From positions 230,479 through 294,478 of the forward strand of contig FR900999.1 of NCBI GenBank assembly GCA_000437915.1: a DNA stretch of 64,000 nucleotides, read 5' to 3'. A program made the translations under genes and the position numbers. Origin of the DNA: Subdoligranulum sp. CAG:314 (lineage in GTDB: Bacteria; Bacillota; Clostridia; Christensenellales; CAG-314). How positions within the stretch are numbered: the stretch's first letter is position 1; each line of letters begins with the position of its first letter. The notes below the pieces were generated by a model that made no database searches, had not been told where the DNA came from, and saw only the letters and a list, made by a program, of their open reading frames with translations. Below, one piece after another: positions 1,793 to 22,339 of the stretch.

Positions 1793-3078
1793 AAGAAGCT
1801 TTTTTGGCCGCATACTCGTGTCTCGACGCCGTTTTCAGAAAAAAAGCTTTTTCGGGTATTGAGCTTAACAACGCGTTGAAATGCTGCTCGGAAAAAAACA
1901 GGGCTGTTGTCACAAAGCTGTTTTACGGTACGCTTGAGCTTGCTTTGAAATACGATTACATTTTGTCGCTGTATGCGAAAACCGTCAAGCCTTCGGTTGC
2001 GACAGCGCTGAAAATGGGGCTTTACGCTTTTGAGGCGCTCAATCTTCCGCAGGCGGCGGCGGTCAACGAGACGGTTGCGCTGATAAAAAATTTGGGCAAG
2101 GGAGGCGCGGCAGGATTTGCAAACGCCGTCATGCGGCGCGCTACGGACGACCTGAAAGAAGGGAAAATAAATTTCGGAGAGGACGAACTCAAAGCTGCCG
2201 CATTGAAAAACGGCTTTCCGCAGTGGGCGGCTTTGCGTCTTGAAAACGATTTCGGCAGGGAGACGGCGTTGAAATTCGTTTCTTACAGGCAGGACGAAGC
2301 GTGGAGACACGTCAGATACAATCCTTTTCGTATAGAATTGCGGGACTTTGAAAGTCTGCTGTCCGACAGGCAAATAAGTTTCAGACAAGGTCCGTTCAAG
2401 GGAGGTTATTTCGTAAAGGGCAGACTCGACGGCGTGCCGCAGGACTTGTTTACTTTTCAGAGCGCAGGCTCCATGGCGGTTGCCTTTGCCTGCGTTTTGA
2501 AGCGGAACGGAAAATTTCTCGACCTTTGCGCCGCGCCCGGTGGAAAATCGGTGCTGGCGGCGCAGCTTTCGCCTCAGGCGGAGATAGTAGCCTGCGACAT
2601 ACATCCCCACAGAACCGATTTGATTGAAAAATACGCCGCGCGCATGGGAGTAAAAAATATCAAGGTTTCTCTCAACGACGCTACAGTATTCAATCGGGAA
2701 TTTAAGGACGCTTTCGACTGCGTACTGTGCGACGCGCCGTGCAGCGGCTTCGGGGTGCTGTCCTCCAAGCCCGACATAAAGCTGTTCAGAAAAGAAAGCG
2801 ACGTGGAGGAGCTTGCGGCATTGCAGAGCAAAATTCTCGGCGTTGCGGCAAGGTATGTCAAAAGGGGAGGTTCTTTGGTTTACTCTACTTGCACGGTGTT
2901 CAAAAGGGAAAACGACGACGTGGTCAACGATTTTTTGCTTGAAAACAAAAATTTCGCAGCGGAAAAAATCGACCTGCCCGTCGACACGGCTTGCGGCATG
3001 GAAAAGTTTGCGCGGTTTTTTCCTTTCAGAGACGGTTTCGACGGCTTTTTTATCGCCCGCTTAAAGAGGCTTGTTTGA
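1789..3078 (+). CDS. rsmB: 16S rRNA (cytosine967-C5)-methyltransferase RsmB/Sun
   Basis: NusB-like N-terminal domain and the SAM methyltransferase motifs DLCAAPGGKS and DAPCSGFG. The position after fmt fits. Confidence 0.9.
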   Translation: MKEAFLAAYSCLDAVFRKKAFSGIELNNALKCCSEKNRAVVTKLFYGTLELALKYDYILSLYAKTVKPSVATALKMGLYAFEALNLPQAAAVNETVALIKNLGKGGAAGFANAVMRRATDDLKEGKINFGEDELKAAALKNGFPQWAALRLENDFGRETALKFVSYRQDEAWRHVRYNPFRIELRDFESLLSDRQISFRQGPFKGGYFVKGRLDGVPQDLFTFQSAGSMAVAFACVLKRNGKFLDLCAAPGGKSVLAAQLSPQAEIVACDIHPHRTDLIEKYAARMGVKNIKVSLNDATVFNREFKDAFDCVLCDAPCSGFGVLSSKPDIKLFRKESDVEELAALQSKILGVAARYVKRGGSLVYSTCTVFKRENDDVVNDFLLENKNFAAEKIDLPVDTACGMEKFARFFPFRDGFDGFFIARLKRLV

Positions 3079-3081
3079 TTT

Positions 3082-4131
3082 ATGAAGCAATTGTTGTCGG
3101 ATTTCAATTCGGAAGAAATACGGGAAGCTCTCGATATTCCGCCCTACAAAGCCAAGCAGATTTTCAGGTGGCTTGCAAAGGGCTGCGATTTTGCGGAAAT
3201 GAGCGACCAGAGCAAGGCGTTTAGGGAAACTCTTCAAGAAAATTATTTTGCGCAGGGCGTAAAAATAATAAAGCGTTTGGTTTCGGAGGACGGAACCGAA
3301 AAATATCTTTTTGCCTTAAACGACGGAGCGGTCGTAGAGGGCGTACTCATGAAATACAAGTACGGCAATACTCTGTGCGTTTCCACTCAGGCAGGGTGCC
3401 GCATGGGATGCGCTTTTTGCGCAAGCACCTTAAACGGTCTTGAAAGAAACTTGTCCGCAGGCGAAATTTACGGCGAGGTCGTCGCGGTAAACCGTTTGAA
3501 GGAGGGCGGTCTCGGCGAGGGGCGCGCGGTGACAAACGTGGTGCTTATGGGAAGCGGGGAGCCGCTTGACAATTACGACAACGTAATCGGTTTTTTAAGG
3601 CTTATAAATTCTCCCGACGGGCTTAACGTGTCTTACAGAAACATTTCCCTTTCAACCTGCGGCTTGGTCCCGCAGATAATCAGGCTTGCAGACGAGGGAA
3701 TTGCCGTCAACCTTACCGTTTCCCTGCACTCGCCTTTTCAGCATAAGCGTATAAAGCTTATGCCCGTGTCTAAAAAATATCCGCTGCTTTCGGTCGTGGA
3801 GGCGGCGAAGTATTATTTTGAAAAGACGGGCAGGCGGGTTTATTTTGAATACACGCTTATAAGCGGAGAAAACGATTCCGACGAAGACGCCGAAAGACTT
3901 GCCGAGCTTCTTAAAGGATTTCCCGCGCATATAAATCTGATTAGACTTAATCCCGTCAGGGAAAGGAGACTCAAAGGCACGGGCGACTCCGCGGCGGCGG
4001 CTTTCGCCGCCCGTCTTCAAAATCTAGGGCTGTCCGTTACGCTAAGACGCAGAATGGGAGCCGATATAGACGGCGCATGCGGGCAGCTGCGCAAGAGATA
4101 TTTGGAGGAAAACGGCTTTGAAAACGGGTAA
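3082..4131 (+). CDS. rlmN: 23S rRNA/tRNA (adenine-C2)-methyltransferase RlmN, a radical SAM enzyme
   Basis: Radical-SAM cluster motif GCRMGCAFCAS, plus VLMGSGEPLDN and the C-terminal DIDGACGQL. Confidence 0.95.
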   Translation: MKQLLSDFNSEEIREALDIPPYKAKQIFRWLAKGCDFAEMSDQSKAFRETLQENYFAQGVKIIKRLVSEDGTEKYLFALNDGAVVEGVLMKYKYGNTLCVSTQAGCRMGCAFCASTLNGLERNLSAGEIYGEVVAVNRLKEGGLGEGRAVTNVVLMGSGEPLDNYDNVIGFLRLINSPDGLNVSYRNISLSTCGLVPQIIRLADEGIAVNLTVSLHSPFQHKRIKLMPVSKKYPLLSVVEAAKYYFEKTGRRVYFEYTLISGENDSDEDAERLAELLKGFPAHINLIRLNPVRERRLKGTGDSAAAAFAARLQNLGLSVTLRRRMGADIDGACGQLRKRYLEENGFENG

Positions 4132-4975
4132 GGTTGTCAAAAGCGTGGGAGGAGTGTTTTACGTTTTCTGCGACGGCAGGAGAATGCGGTTGTTTTCCCG
4201 CAAAAAAATCAGGCTGCGCGACGAGGTGATTGTCGGCGACAACGTACTGTTCGACGAAAAGGAGAGAACAATCGAAAAGGTTTTGCCGCGGACAAACCGT
4301 CTTGTGCGCCCGCCTGTGGCAAACGTGGACTGTGCGTTGATTTTCGTAGCGCCGAGTCCCGAACCGGACCTTTTTCTTGCCGACAAAATTCTTCTCAATT
4401 GTTTCAGACAGGACGTCAGTCCGTTGTTCGTCGTCAACAAAAAGGATATTTCCGACGACGCTTTTTGCGACAGAATAAAGTCCAATTATTCGTCTGCGGC
4501 GACGGTGTTTTGCGTGAGCGCTTTGACGGGTGAGGGCGTAGAGGCCTTGAAACGGGCTTTGGCGGGCAAAACGGTGTGTCTGACAGGACAGTCGGCAGTG
4601 GGGAAAACGACTCTCCTCAATCTCCTTACGGGTGAAAATATGCCTACGGGCGACCTGTCCGAAAAAATTGCGCGCGGAAAAAACACAACGCGGCACAGCG
4701 AGATTTTCGGCGCGGGACAGGATACGTTCTTAATCGACACTCCCGGATTTTCTCTGCTTGACACGCAGGAAATAAGAGCGTTTGAGTTGGGGCTGTTTTA
4801 TCCCGACTTTGCCGAGCAGGCGCCGCTTTGCCGTTTCAATATGTGTACGCACACGGCCGAGCCGGACTGTGCGGTAAAAAGCGCCGTCGCAAACGGACGG
4901 ATAAACGGGGAACGGTACGAGAGATACGCCGCGCTTTTTGAACAGCTGAAAAAAGCGGAAGAAGAACGCTTTTAA
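4118..4975 (+). CDS. rsgA: Ribosome small-subunit-dependent GTPase A
   Basis: Circularly permuted GTPase with VVNKKD before GQSAVGKTTLLN. C-terminal zinc knuckle CRFNMCTHTAEPDCAV. Confidence 0.9.
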   Translation: MKTGKVVKSVGGVFYVFCDGRRMRLFSRKKIRLRDEVIVGDNVLFDEKERTIEKVLPRTNRLVRPPVANVDCALIFVAPSPEPDLFLADKILLNCFRQDVSPLFVVNKKDISDDAFCDRIKSNYSSAATVFCVSALTGEGVEALKRALAGKTVCLTGQSAVGKTTLLNLLTGENMPTGDLSEKIARGKNTTRHSEIFGAGQDTFLIDTPGFSLLDTQEIRAFELGLFYPDFAEQAPLCRFNMCTHTAEPDCAVKSAVANGRINGERYERYAALFEQLKKAEEERF

Positions 4976-16638: not shown

Positions 16639-16716
16639 AAGCAAAGAGAGTGCGTAAAAACGCACTCTCTTTGCAAAACAGTCGAGTTTCGACGTTGGTC
16701 GAGGCGACGGGACTTG
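16639..16716 (-). repeat. Distal copy of a perfect 78-nt direct repeat: tRNA-Pro positions 56-76 plus 57 nt of 3' flank including a hairpin
   Basis: Identical base for base to 16932-17009. Contains the hairpin AAAGAGAGTGCG-TAAAAA-CGCACTCTCTTT. Confidence 0.95.
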
Positions 16717-16768
16717 CAAGGAGCGGCAGCGACGGAGCAGCGAGGGAGGAAAGCTCCCGAAGCGTCAC
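16708..16768 (-). repeat. Conserved junction motif, minus-strand copy
   Basis: Its reverse complement reads GTGACGC-TTC[GGGAG CTTTC CTCCC]-TCGCTG N5 TCGCTG-CCGCTCCTTG-CAAGTCCCG. Confidence 0.85.
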
Positions 16769-16931
16769 AAAATTCAACATCCCGTAAAAAGAAGTCTGCC
16801 AAACAGCCCCCAAAGCGACGTTTGGTTTTTTTGTGAGTCCTACGCAACAAAAAAGCCAAACAAGCAAAAAGGGCTTGTAAAAAAGAGGAACCCCGAAAGC
16901 GAGCTTTCGGGGAGGAGGAGAAACCGACAAA

Positions 16932-17009
16932 AAGCAAAGAGAGTGCGTAAAAACGCACTCTCTTTGCAAAACAGTCGAGTTTCGACGTTGGTCGAGGCGA
17001 CGGGACTTG
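16932..17009 (-). repeat. Proximal copy of the 78-nt repeat; overlaps the 3' 21 nt of tRNA-Pro and its downstream hairpin
   Basis: Perfect match to 16639-16716. Confidence 0.95.
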
Positions 17010-17065
17010 AACCCACGACCTCTTGCTCCCTAAGCAAGCGCGCTACCAAACTGCGCCACGCCTCG
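16989..17065 (-). tRNA. tRNA-Pro-like gene with anticodon loop TTAGGGA (anticodon AGG); CCA is encoded
   Basis: Manual cloverleaf: acceptor CGAGGCG/CGCCTCG (C1:G72, A73), D-stem GCGC/GCGC with GG in the loop, anticodon stem CTTGC/GCAAG, T-arm GTGGG-TTCAAGT-CCCGT (two G.U pairs). Total 77 nt. Confidence 0.8.
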
Positions 17066-17125
17066 ACGGGCAACAAACAAGCGCCGTAACGGCGCATTAA
17101 CGTTGCTTGTTGATTACCGCAGATT

Positions 17126-17154
17126 ATTCTACCATATCCCCAACCGCAAGTCAA
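17126..17154 (-). promoter_or_regulatory. Putative promoter of tRNA-Pro
   Basis: Minus strand: TTGACT, 17-nt spacer, TAGAAT. This gives a roughly 55-nt hairpin-containing leader before the tRNA. Confidence 0.5.
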
Positions 17155-19839: not shown

Positions 19840-21075
19840 TTATTCGCTTTCGACGCTCGCGCCGACAATTTCGTTTTCCGTTTTTTCGGCAGGAATCGCG
19901 TCTCTTTTCTTTCTTGACATATACAAAGAAACGCAAAGTAAAGAGATTGTCACCGCGCACAGAGCGGGATTTCTGAAATAGCTGAACGAAGTTGTACCGA
20001 ATTTATATTCATTCAAAATTGCAATGACAAATACGATTGCAACGTGAAGGACGATAAATACTATATCGGATATATAAGAGTTGAAAATGCTTTTTTTGTT
20101 TTCCGAACTGTGCGCGAGAGTTACGGCTCCCAATACAAGCAAAATTACGGACAAAATCAGCTGCCAATACATATTGCCGATGATTTCCGGTTTGAAGAAC
20201 AGCCGGTTAAAAAAGTCGAGAACGGCAAACGAAGCCCTTACGAGACAGAAAATCATCGCCGCAAAACGTAATTTTGAAGCGGTAAAAGATGAAGTCGGTT
20301 TCTGCCTTACTCGGGAAGAAAGCGAAAGCGAAACGACGCATAACACGGCGGAAGCGGCATAAACCAGATATATCAATCCATTTTCAAAAATCGGAACTTC
20401 CGCGTCGGTCGGGTTGACGCCGATAAACGCGAAAAAATAATAAGCAAGCAAGATTAAATCGAGAGCGCGTCTTTGCTCAAAGCCGTTTTTTGTCCGTTCA
20501 GGCGGTTTGATTAACATTATCGAAACGGTCAGAAACAGCGTTGCGAAAGCTATAAGATATAACATATACAAAACCGGAATCGAATTGTTTTCATTGAACA
20601 TCCAAATCACGCAAAATATGATTACCGACGAGAAATGGACTGTGTTGAATATGCCGTTTCCCAGTTGAATATTGCGTTTCAGAGCGACTGCGCGCGCGGG
20701 TGACTGTCCGTATTTGTAAATCGTCAAAAAGGCGAATGTCGCGGAAACGCCGAAAAGCGCAAATTGAAAAACGCCGAGAGTGTTTGAAACGAAATTCACG
20801 TAACCGAAAAAAGGTTGGGAAAGAAATACGGAAAAAGAGCCCGCAAGGACAGCAAAAAGCAAAACCGCGCTTGCCGCGCTGCCCTTTTCTTCGCTAAAAA
20901 CGAGAAATAGCGAAAGCAAAATTATGCAACCGTATACCACGTTGAAAGAGATGATATAAATTTTTTCCAACCCGGTACCGCGCAGCCCTGCGGCGTTGAT
21001 AAAACCAAAAATCGCAAACAGTATTCCGGCTATACACCCGCAAATCTGATAAATTTTTTCTTTAAAATGCAGCAT
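19840..21075 (-). CDS. Polytopic membrane protein of unknown function (paralog B)
   Basis: Start set at MLHFKEK, with AGGAGGG 6 nt upstream. About 12 hydrophobic segments and an acidic C-terminal tail. Architecture is similar to the upstream gene. Confidence 0.65.
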   Translation of the reverse strand: MLHFKEKIYQICGCIAGILFAIFGFINAAGLRGTGLEKIYIISFNVVYGCIILLSLFLVFSEEKGSAASAVLLFAVLAGSFSVFLSQPFFGYVNFVSNTLGVFQFALFGVSATFAFLTIYKYGQSPARAVALKRNIQLGNGIFNTVHFSSVIIFCVIWMFNENNSIPVLYMLYLIAFATLFLTVSIMLIKPPERTKNGFEQRRALDLILLAYYFFAFIGVNPTDAEVPIFENGLIYLVYAASAVLCVVSLSLSSRVRQKPTSSFTASKLRFAAMIFCLVRASFAVLDFFNRLFFKPEIIGNMYWQLILSVILLVLGAVTLAHSSENKKSIFNSYISDIVFIVLHVAIVFVIAILNEYKFGTTSFSYFRNPALCAVTISLLCVSLYMSRKKRDAIPAEKTENEIVGASVESE

Positions 21076-21106
21076 TGCATCCCTCCTGTTAAGTACGTAA
21101 ACTTGT

Positions 21107-22339
21107 TTATTCCGCGCTTTCCGCATTTTCTTCCGTCACAACCGTTTTTTCCGTTTGTTCGGGCGACGTCGAATTTTTTTTCAAAACTGTCGACGCGGCG
21201 CAGCAGATGGCAAGCGCAAAGCCGAATGCGCAGGATGCCCTGAGATAACTTTGCTCGGGCGTTGTAATCAGCCCGAATGTCAGGCACAAGAGGCAGGCGA
21301 CGAAAATAAGCGTTTTCATGACGACGGGCGGGAAGATTTTTTTGCCAAAGTGCAGCGGAAGGGCAAGAATTACGACCGCCGTGCCCGAGACCAGATAAAT
21401 GTAGTCGGCGTAATCGGGAATGCGCCTCAACGTATCGTCCTTTTGACAAAAAACAAAATTTGCAATCACGGTCACTGCGAGAAGAATGGACAGGGGAAGA
21501 AGGGCTTTGTCCGCGCAAAAAGACAAATGCCCGCGTTTGTCCTCAAAGGGACCGAATTCGAATCTGTCGAAAATGCAAATCAGACTGAGCGCGATTATTG
21601 CCATACTCAAAAGAATATTCAGAAAATAAACGGGCTGCTCGTACAGCAAATCACCTTCCAGCAGATTCTTTATATCGTAAATGTAGTAAAGTACAAATAA
21701 AATATTGATTAAAGTTTTTTCATTGTATCTGCCGCTCATTTTCCAATGCTGTTCTTTGATGAGAAAGCATGAGAGAACTATTACCGCCGCCGACAGTAAA
21801 ACGGGCAACAGCGAATCGAAATCGGCAAACCGCGAGTATAAAATAATCAATGCGCTTGAAAGGGCGGTTAAAATGCCTCTTACAAGGTTTGCTATGCCGT
21901 TGGCTTTGAGCAGAATCCGTTTTTTGTGAAAGACGTATTCGGCTTTTTGCGCGTTGAACTGAATAATTGCGGCGTTAAGCAAAATTATGAATACGCTTAG
22001 AAAAATGCGAACCGTGTCAAGCGCCAGAGAATACTGTACTTCGAGTTCTTCCCAGAAAACAAAACAGCACAAAAAAATATTGACGACGATGAAAACGATT
22101 TCCGCAGACAAAGATTCGGTTTTCGACGATGCGATATAATATATGGAAAAGATAACGGAAGTCAAAGCAAGCGCAACGCATACGACGGATACCGTGCTTT
22201 GTTCCGAATGAAAATCTTTCGGATTCAAGTGAATGAGTATTTCCGCAAGGATAAACAGCGCGGCGTTTGCAATGCAGCAAAACGAATTCAAATATTTAAG
22301 CAAAACTGTTTTGTTTGCCGACTCCTTAATTTTTTTCAT
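21107..22339 (-). CDS. Polytopic membrane protein of unknown function (paralog A)
   Basis: 410 aa with about 12 hydrophobic segments and an acidic C-terminal tail EQTEKTVVTEENAESAE. No recognisable catalytic motif. Confidence 0.65.
   Translation of the reverse strand: MKKIKESANKTVLLKYLNSFCCIANAALFILAEILIHLNPKDFHSEQSTVSVVCVALALTSVIFSIYYIASSKTESLSAEIVFIVVNIFLCCFVFWEELEVQYSLALDTVRIFLSVFIILLNAAIIQFNAQKAEYVFHKKRILLKANGIANLVRGILTALSSALIILYSRFADFDSLLPVLLSAAVIVLSCFLIKEQHWKMSGRYNEKTLINILFVLYYIYDIKNLLEGDLLYEQPVYFLNILLSMAIIALSLICIFDRFEFGPFEDKRGHLSFCADKALLPLSILLAVTVIANFVFCQKDDTLRRIPDYADYIYLVSGTAVVILALPLHFGKKIFPPVVMKTLIFVACLLCLTFGLITTPEQSYLRASCAFGFALAICCAASTVLKKNSTSPEQTEKTVVTEENAESAE

Follow-up and report, generated by a model that had tools for sequence, protein, structure and literature searches.

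The window analysed here is a 64,000-nucleotide (nt) stretch of Subdoligranulum sp. CAG:314 (contig FR900999.1, positions 230,479 to 294,478), and it carries a gene for a proline transfer RNA (tRNA) with the anticodon AGG, in which position 34 is a genomically encoded adenosine (A34). We conclude with high confidence that this tRNA-Pro(AGG) is a functional, lineage-fixed reader of the codons CCU and CCC, whatever the modification state of A34. The fuller reading, in which a functional, lineage-fixed Pro(AGG) sits in the slot of Pro(GGG) with its A34 deaminated to inosine (I34), stands at about an even chance. In this scheme, Pro(AGG) would take the place that Pro(GGG) holds in most bacteria and read CCU and CCC, while a near-identical Pro(CGG) gene of the same species would read CCG. 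The A34 state is old, being fixed across Christensenellales-type relatives and present also in Lachnospiraceae, Anaerotignum and a few other Firmicutes.

The gene and its anticodon are located in the window as follows.

16989–17065, minus strand: tRNA-Pro(AGG) gene, 77 nt, with CCA encoded (ARAGORN; Rfam RF00005).
17029–17031, minus strand: anticodon A34-G35-G36 (sequence reading; register from ARAGORN and Rfam/Infernal).

ARAGORN assigns 16989–17065 on the minus strand to tRNA-Pro with the anticodon agg. The Rfam model RF00005 matches 16992–17065 on the same strand with 63.1 bits (E = 2.5e-11; gathering score, 29 bits) and is covered in full, from 1 to 71; its alignment places U-U-A-G-G-G-A in the anticodon loop. 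A34 corresponds to the plus-strand T at 17031. Read directly, the first half of the tRNA is CGAGGCG-UG-GCGC-AGUUUGGUA-GCGC-G-CUUGC-UUAGGGA-GCAAG, and the second half, following GCAAG, is AGGUC-GUGGG-UUCAAGU-CCCGU-CGCCUCG-A-CCA, with GCGC/GCGC as the D stem and CUUGC/GCAAG as the anticodon stem. A preliminary description of this DNA had folded a clean cloverleaf by hand and read its anticodon as AGG, and both programs agree on that register; it had also named a different register or a low-scoring pseudogene call as possible outcomes, and the register and score obtained are those of a normal tRNA. All the proline identity features are present, namely C1:G72, A73, G35, G36 and G37, the last being the TrmD site. 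The C1:G72 pair is regarded as a hallmark of bacterial tRNA-Pro. Such a tRNA would be expected to be expressed and to be charged with proline by prolyl-tRNA synthetase (ProRS).

The same locus, linked to copA, was recovered from six other assemblies of different samples (L001–L006). As far as each contig reaches, these are base-for-base the same as the window through the anticodon loop. Since A34 is the same in seven assemblies, a sequencing error at 17031, which the preliminary description had considered, is excluded, and a wrong register was likewise rejected, given that ARAGORN and Infernal place the anticodon identically.

The distribution of the gene was surveyed with a generic Pro(AGG) pattern, consisting of a D arm, Y32-U33-AGG-G37 and then GGTC, which was scanned in 185,579 species-representative genomes and gave at least 120 matching loci. 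ARAGORN called Pro(AGG) in 116 of the 120 loci listed and made no tRNA call in the other 4. The pattern fixes the D-arm geometry, so that tRNA-Pro genes built differently (e.g. those of Bacteroidota) would escape it; the taxon names are those of the deposited records, and some of these, labelled 'cleanbin' (E. coli, Faecalibacterium), may reflect faulty binning. Presence across many species of a clade, the mark of lineage fixation, was thus found in at least 116 species genomes. Judged by record titles, the hosts among the matches listed are almost all gut Clostridia, mostly uncultured, and Firmicutes account for 115 of the 116 loci, though the pattern also fits proteobacterial tRNA-Pro. The window's backbone type occurs in 62 of the at least 116 species genomes with Pro(AGG), always with the T-loop UUCAAGU, and is found in Christensenellaceae, Christensenella, Borkfalkiaceae, Candidatus Scatosoma, Coproplasma and Gallimonas at 66–73 identities over 77 positions. 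The window's own species is absent from the matches listed; a human gut metagenome yielded one contig of that species. Further hosts among the matches listed are Lachnospiraceae, Eubacterium and Anaerotignum, together with single cases in Erysipelotrichales (Stecheria intestinalis), a metagenome-assembled genome (MAG) of Lactobacillaceae, a MAG of Bacillales and a gammaproteobacterium (Succinivibrio). The cultured hosts among them are Anaerotignum lactatifermentans DSM 14214 and Stecheria intestinalis.

Three details of individual hosts were recorded in this survey. Anaerotignum has a tandem pair of identical Pro(AGG) genes (L033, 2939–2975 and 3121–3157; also L123), which suggests that the isoacceptor is in high demand there. 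The Succinivibrio sp. locus (L015), on the complete chromosome LR994470.1, is the only proteobacterial Pro(AGG) among the matches listed, and its acceptor stem is that of two Pro(UGG) genes 3 kb away; it may represent a natural case of unmodified A34, with a TadA expected to be of the E. coli type. In most Pro(AGG) genes of the Christensenellales-type loci (L022, L044, L059, L080, L113 and about 40 others), the first pair is U1:A72, while the Pro(CGG) genes of these loci keep C1:G72, the pair that the window's Pro(AGG) also has. This difference may bear on the type of ProRS in these organisms.

Measured against the published record, such a tRNA stands out as very unusual. The preliminary description held that bacterial A34 is largely limited to Arg(ACG), and the surveys agree, with only Leu(AAG) and Thr(AGU) otherwise fixed in some lineages. 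A 2026 GtRNAdb survey of 4,047 bacterial genomes counted 8,383 A34 tRNA genes, 7,688 of them Arg(ACG); Leu(AAG) and Thr(AGU) were the only others fixed in any genus, and the remaining ANN tRNAs of four-codon boxes were regarded as sporadic. Reviews and the 2026 survey describe A-starting anticodons of four-codon boxes as near-absent from bacteria and call this a paradox, engineered ones being harmless or beneficial. In GtRNAdb-based surveys, Pro(AGG) predictions are individual, sporadic entries, and our literature search found no paper on a lineage-wide, selectively maintained natural bacterial Pro(AGG). The statement that an A34 tRNA-Pro is unusual for bacteria accordingly holds for cultured model organisms and GtRNAdb but not for the relatives of this organism, in which Pro(AGG) is conserved across at least 116 species genomes. 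The analysis finds Pro(AGG) to be a further natural bacterial A34 tRNA beyond Arg(ACG), and one of the 'missing' tRNAs.

Functional constraint was assessed on 48 distinct Pro(AGG) sequences, which were aligned without gaps and scored on the standard cloverleaf. Stem cells pair in 99.5% of cases, compared with 79% in column shuffles and 34–53% when the partners are slid. Compensatory double changes are present in 16 of the 21 stem pairs, and none of 500 shuffles reached the observed covariation score. All seven bases of the loop UUAGGGA are invariant in these homologues. Judging from this alignment, the Pro(AGG) genes are working tRNAs under purifying selection, with A34 among the conserved bases.

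The codons available to such a tRNA were counted from simple gene calls based on the longest open reading frame. The proline codons of the window are CCC (42%), CCG (32%), CCU (22%) and CCA (4%), CCU and CCC together making up 64%. The loci of 62 related species (112,000 codons) give a similar profile, with 40% CCC, 30% CCG, 21% CCU and 9% CCA, and in the same set the four-codon boxes of Pro and Arg share a U/(U+C) of 0.35. All codons that start with C and end with A are depleted in these genomes, not CCA alone; the scarcity of CCA is therefore uninformative on either a loss of Pro(UGG) or the presence of I34. We infer that Pro(AGG) has replaced the GGG isoacceptor.

How A34 is used in decoding was posed by the preliminary description as a choice between I34 produced by a broadened TadA and unmodified A34, and this proves to be the right open question, with both readings keeping weight. 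That A34 of Pro(AGG) is deaminated to I34 appears, from the loop and enzyme sequences, to be an evenly balanced proposition. A Firmicute-type TadA would carry out the reaction, its nucleotide-35 pocket being predicted to be open because it lacks the two arginines of the Escherichia coli enzyme; the product, tRNA-Pro(IGG), would decode CCU and CCC and, more weakly, CCA, much as CGN codons are served by tRNA-Arg(ICG). In the Staphylococcus aureus TadA–RNA structure, C35 is solvent-exposed and makes no base-specific contact, and in E. coli TadA the position-35 pocket is narrowed by R26 and R152. Six of the seven positions of the loop UUAGGGA agree with YUAMGRA, the consensus for TadA of Streptococcus pyogenes, the exception being G35, where A or C is needed. 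Of the E. coli-type determinants U33-A34-C35-G36, the loop has U33, A34 and G36, together with the stem-loop, and carries G at position 35. Pro(AGG) would therefore fall outside the known TadA substrate classes, both that of E. coli and that of streptococci. The mismatch at position 35 lowers the case for a substrate of a known type of TadA but does not lower that for deamination by a TadA that accepts G35. A comparison of the two Stecheria loops, CUACGAA in Arg(ACG) and UUAGGGA in Pro(AGG), at positions 35 and 37 shows a difference at both, and the same two positions also separate Arg from Leu(AAG), a proven I34 substrate.

The 64-kb window itself contains no TadA gene. In two Lachnospiraceae MAGs, TadA is encoded about 2 kb from Pro(AGG), at 3898–4362 on the plus strand of L094 and at 2943–3524 on the plus strand of L125, where the protein has 193 amino acids. 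This TadA matches the NCBIfam equivalog with 164 bits, has H and L at the positions of R26 and R152, and keeps the G36-reading arginine and the stacking phenylalanine. In addition, no G34 occurs among 66 non-A34 versions of the window's backbone, described below, which argues that A34 itself is selected. That the TadA of gut Clostridia has widened to accept G35, making tRNA-Pro(IGG) a third natural inosine tRNA of bacteria alongside those of Arg and Leu, has a little less than an even chance. As a separate observation, the Lachnospiraceae TadA carries Asn where the E. coli enzyme has D108 and Met where it has R107, and its C-terminus is lengthened by an acidic stretch of about 35 residues. The mutation that first enabled TadA to work on DNA, during the evolution of base editors, was at D108.

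A number of points weigh against deamination and the full scheme built on it. The TadA examined is from Lachnospiraceae, not from the window's lineage, and the same open pocket occurs in other Firmicute TadAs with no known Pro(AGG) editing. At 27 edited mRNA sites of S. pyogenes, the nucleotide that matches position 35 is A or C only, never G. Three enterobacterial studies found Pro-type AGG anticodons to be unmodified: an orthogonal AGG tRNA in E. coli gave 12.9% for CCU, 10.3% for CCC, 0.9% for CCA and 1.0% for CCG, with no inosine; the same AGG reading behaviour was reported in Salmonella (Chen et al. 2002); and the chromosomal proL G34A tRNA of E. coli was mature, unmodified and at the wild-type level. 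Thr(GGU) and Val(GAC) retain G34 in these lineages, indicating no general widening of A34, and Pro(AGG) is also present in a proteobacterium, the Succinivibrio of L015. Codon usage was dropped as a test between I34 and unmodified A34, as the excess of CCC over CCU and the Arg-like proline box fit unmodified A34 equally well; since unmodified A34 reads CCU about as well as CCC in this box, the codon-usage argument for I34 fails. With regard to the GGG slot, the evidence covers approximately 1.4 Mb flanking the Pro(AGG) and Pro(CGG) genes, in which no Pro(GGG) was found.

The foremost alternative is that A34 remains unmodified and that Pro(AGG) is a functional, lineage-fixed CCU/CCC reader standing in for Pro(GGG) in that state, a possibility that we hold at somewhat below even but take seriously. 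In this explanation, the tRNA reads CCU by Watson–Crick pairing and CCC through an A:C mismatch nearly equally well ('two out of three'), thanks to the strength of the two G:C pairs formed at codon positions 1 and 2, and the change from G34 to A34 is cheap in the proline box. Engineered ANN tRNAs from four-codon boxes are neutral or beneficial. The AGG tRNAs of E. coli and Salmonella, which read CCU and CCC with no inosine detected in E. coli, agree with it, as do the maturation of the unmodified proL G34A tRNA to wild-type levels and the restriction of S. pyogenes TadA to A or C at the nucleotide-35 match. The switch is limited to the proline box, in which unmodified A34 performed best, and Pro(AGG) occurs in several unrelated backbones, including that of a gammaproteobacterium, which is easier without a change in TadA. 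However, if A34 and G34 were equivalent, G34 revertants would be expected among relatives old enough to have fixed many substitutions in their stems, yet they number 0 of the 66 non-A34 versions; and if unmodified A34 were tolerated in all bacteria, Pro(AGG) should have spread across phyla, yet 115 of the 116 loci among the matches listed are from Firmicutes. Moreover, the hosts are not reduced and AT-rich like Mycoplasma, the only proven natural case of unmodified A34, the window having a guanine-plus-cytosine (GC) content of 48%.

The non-A34 versions came to light together with a second proline tRNA gene. Four Logan assemblies (k = 31) stop at the same base within the tRNA, with the last 31-mer starting at A34. 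By de Bruijn graph logic, this common break predicts a second sequence that is the same from position 35 onwards and different at position 34 and within the preceding 30 nt. A 78-nt repeat beside the gene was considered as the cause of the breaks and rejected by k-mer arithmetic; a Pro(CGG) twin accounts for them. When a metagenome collection was scanned for versions of the window's backbone without A34, 66 contigs were obtained, all 66 with C34, that is, Pro(CGG), and none with G34 or U34. In 13 metagenome contigs, Pro(CGG) matches the window's tRNA except for C in place of A at position 34 and A in place of G at raw position 9. This twin has its own promoter-bearing upstream flank in 11 aligned contigs, unlike the copA-side flank, which precedes Pro(AGG) in all seven assemblies. 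The species has two near-identical proline tRNA genes with different decoding. Comparable pairs exist elsewhere: in L018, a distance of 316 bp separates Pro(CGG) from Pro(AGG) and the two genes match except at position 34, while among the Lachnospiraceae loci Pro(CGG)–Pro(AGG) tandems occur frequently.

The similarity of the twins raises the possibility that Pro(AGG) is a young, roughly neutral, species-specific derivative of Pro(CGG), formed by a C34-to-A change in a duplicate or by gene conversion. The two-base difference, the shared downstream sequence and the L018 pair fit this account, as does the C1:G72 of the window's gene, which matches the Pro(CGG) of relatives and not the U1:A72 of many Pro(AGG) genes. 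Three observations nonetheless make it quite improbable. A34 is found in the copA-side gene of all seven assemblies; Pro(AGG) with the same T-loop UUCAAGU extends across 62 related species genomes; and G9 is common to the Pro(AGG) of the window and of L114 and L119, which belong to two other species, whereas the Pro(CGG) twin has A9. Because G9 is shared with these species but not with the twin, the AGG gene predates this species, and concerted evolution of two old genes accounts better for the similarity than fresh mutation does.

An artefact or dead gene, whether from misread or misassembled sequence at 17031, as a tRNA pseudogene, or as prophage or mobile cargo, has only a negligible chance, for although a 78-nt repeat beside the gene and contigs breaking inside the tRNA make the region hard to assemble, the loop is identical in seven assemblies, the 63.1-bit cloverleaf is intact, covariation is strong and the loop invariant across 48 sequences, and a phage or mobile origin was rejected on the grounds that the Pro(AGG) pattern had 0 matches among 2.9 million viral contigs, whereas its UGG version had at least 120, that the flanks have no phage or plasmid match, and that no integrase occurs among the neighbouring genes.

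Two predicted motifs flank the gene.

17126–17154, minus strand: sigma-70-type promoter, TTGACT-17 nt-TAGAAT with extended TG (promoter scan, 10/12 matches).
16934–16967, minus strand: intrinsic terminator hairpin with a 15-bp stem and a T tract (terminator scan; inverted repeat I1).

The promoter lies about 60 nt upstream of the tRNA, and the scan of the region, which scores the match to the consensus alone, gave 2 sites against 0.3 expected. The terminator hairpin lies 21 nt downstream of the tRNA. These predicted motifs describe tRNA-Pro(AGG) as a self-contained transcription unit. Also noted in the leader between the promoter and the tRNA 5' end, at 17081–17095 on the minus strand of the window, was a 6-bp hairpin rich in GC (GCGCCGUUACGGCGC), with a U-rich stretch after it. 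The unit is flanked by a 4'-phosphopantetheinyl transferase gene on one side and the divergent copA–copZ pair on the other, and neither an integrase Pfam family nor a phage gene was found among its neighbours. Synteny of the copA-side locus was found in no other species among the loci examined. Just downstream of copA–copZ, two adjacent overlapping genes (19840–21126 and 21107–22339, both minus strand) encode multi-pass membrane proteins of about 410–430 amino acids with no Pfam family on record.

The preliminary description reported a duplication of the 3' tail of the tRNA, and this is present in the window, where 17009–16932 recurs at 16716–16639. The elements of the duplication, in transcriptional order, are as follows.

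16932–17009, minus strand: repeat copy 1 (R, 78 nt), comprising the last 21 nt of the tRNA and the terminator region.
16717–16931, minus strand: inter-repeat segment, 215 nt (Ia, 16931–16879; Ib, 16878–16717).
16639–16716, minus strand: repeat copy 2 (R, 78 nt), an exact copy of 16932–17009.

The window, L001 and L141 share the 293-bp unit formed by the 78-nt repeat and the 215 nt; the unit is missing from L002, an assembly of the same species that has the same Pro(AGG) gene with a single 78-nt copy and without the 215 nt. The 215 nt and all junctions of the unit are also found downstream of Pro(CGG) (L163, L134, L149, L172, L170, L127 and L128). In L141, which matches the window across 11.3 kb at 98.98% identity, the CGG gene, preceded by its own upstream flank, is connected to the window's ACPS side, and L145 has the same CGG-to-ACPS junction in a shorter form. 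The duplication had been taken to mean that Pro(AGG) may not be the ancestral isoacceptor. This argument lapses, since the duplicated material is shared with the Pro(CGG) locus and absent in L002, and hence has no bearing on the ancestry of Pro(AGG). As in a tRNA-targeted integrative element, exact 78-nt direct repeats flank the 215 nt, and 21-nt repeats are found at Pro(CGG); the genes of such an element are missing, in that the 215-nt insert is non-coding and no integrase Pfam family occurs among the neighbours. The repeat and the insert had no match among phage and plasmid sequences. The duplication arose either by recombination of the two tRNA loci through their shared 3' sequence or as an assembly path through a 78-nt repeat longer than the k-mer. 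At the Pro(CGG) locus (L163, L134, L149, L172, L170 and L127), about 170 nt directly follow the tRNA and are succeeded by a second copy of its last 21 nt. In sequence, this insert of about 170 nt looks like an integration footprint in a tRNA 3' end, though it is non-coding and has no integrase nearby.

Several known A34 systems resemble Pro(AGG) to differing degrees. The closest natural precedent is Leu(AAG), converted to IAG in Lactobacillales (Oenococcus oeni, S. pyogenes and S. mutans). Both are natural A34 tRNAs of four-codon boxes, fixed in Firmicutes in place of a GNN isoacceptor, and both loops have U33, G36, a purine at 37 and A38 while differing from Arg(ACG) at positions 35 and 37. 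They serve different amino acids and boxes, however, with A35 in Leu and G35 in Pro(AGG); I34 is experimentally proven in Leu and a candidate state in Pro(AGG); and the hosts of Leu(AAG) are AT-rich Lactobacillales, whereas those of Pro(AGG) are gut Clostridia of about 48% GC. The closest functional precedent is engineered Pro(AGG), made as proL G34A in Salmonella and E. coli or from an orthogonal M. jannaschii tRNA. It has the same anticodon and box, and the engineered A34 tRNA matures, is charged and reads CCU and CCC. These constructs were placed in enterobacteria with a narrow-pocket TadA and stayed unmodified, whereas the window's gene is natural and kept across species. Thr(AGU) of Mycoplasma capricolum and other Mollicutes, which is unmodified, is likewise a natural bacterial A34 tRNA of a four-codon box; unlike Pro(AGG), it lacks the G36 that TadA requires and is thus no substrate, and the organisms that carry it, whose genomes are small and AT-rich, are subject to strong drift.

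Two further comparisons concern inosine-based decoding. Eukaryotic cytosolic tRNA-Pro(AGG), converted to IGG by ADAT2/ADAT3, has the same anticodon, and in both systems AGG is combined with CGG, with no GGG seen so far. In eukaryotes, the enzyme is a sequence-tolerant ADAT heterodimer acting on seven or eight tRNAs; here, the proline box alone is involved and the sole candidate enzyme is the homodimeric TadA. Bacterial tRNA-Arg(ACG), converted to ICG, shares the loop layout Y32-U33-A34-N35-G36-R37-A38, a C34 partner and the shape of the codon box, but has C35, a determinant for E. coli TadA, where Pro(AGG) has G35.

According to these findings, selection maintains Pro(AGG) in at least 116 species; most of them are uncultured gut Clostridia, which tRNA databases built on complete genomes under-sample. 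In these abundant gut taxa, AGG should count as the reader of CCU and CCC when codon adaptation is measured or tRNA-based annotation is made. The cultured hosts Anaerotignum lactatifermentans and Stecheria intestinalis offer a natural system in which to ask whether life proceeds on unmodified A34 or whether TadA has broadened a second time. If the latter is true, these organisms would be a natural source of TadA variants that tolerate G after the target A, of interest for base-editor engineering. Proline would then be decoded in an Arg-like or eukaryote-like manner by I34 and C34 tRNAs, with GGG lost and UGG perhaps dispensable, and the lineage would represent an independent, single-box repeat of the expansion that underlies ADAT-dependent decoding in eukaryotes.

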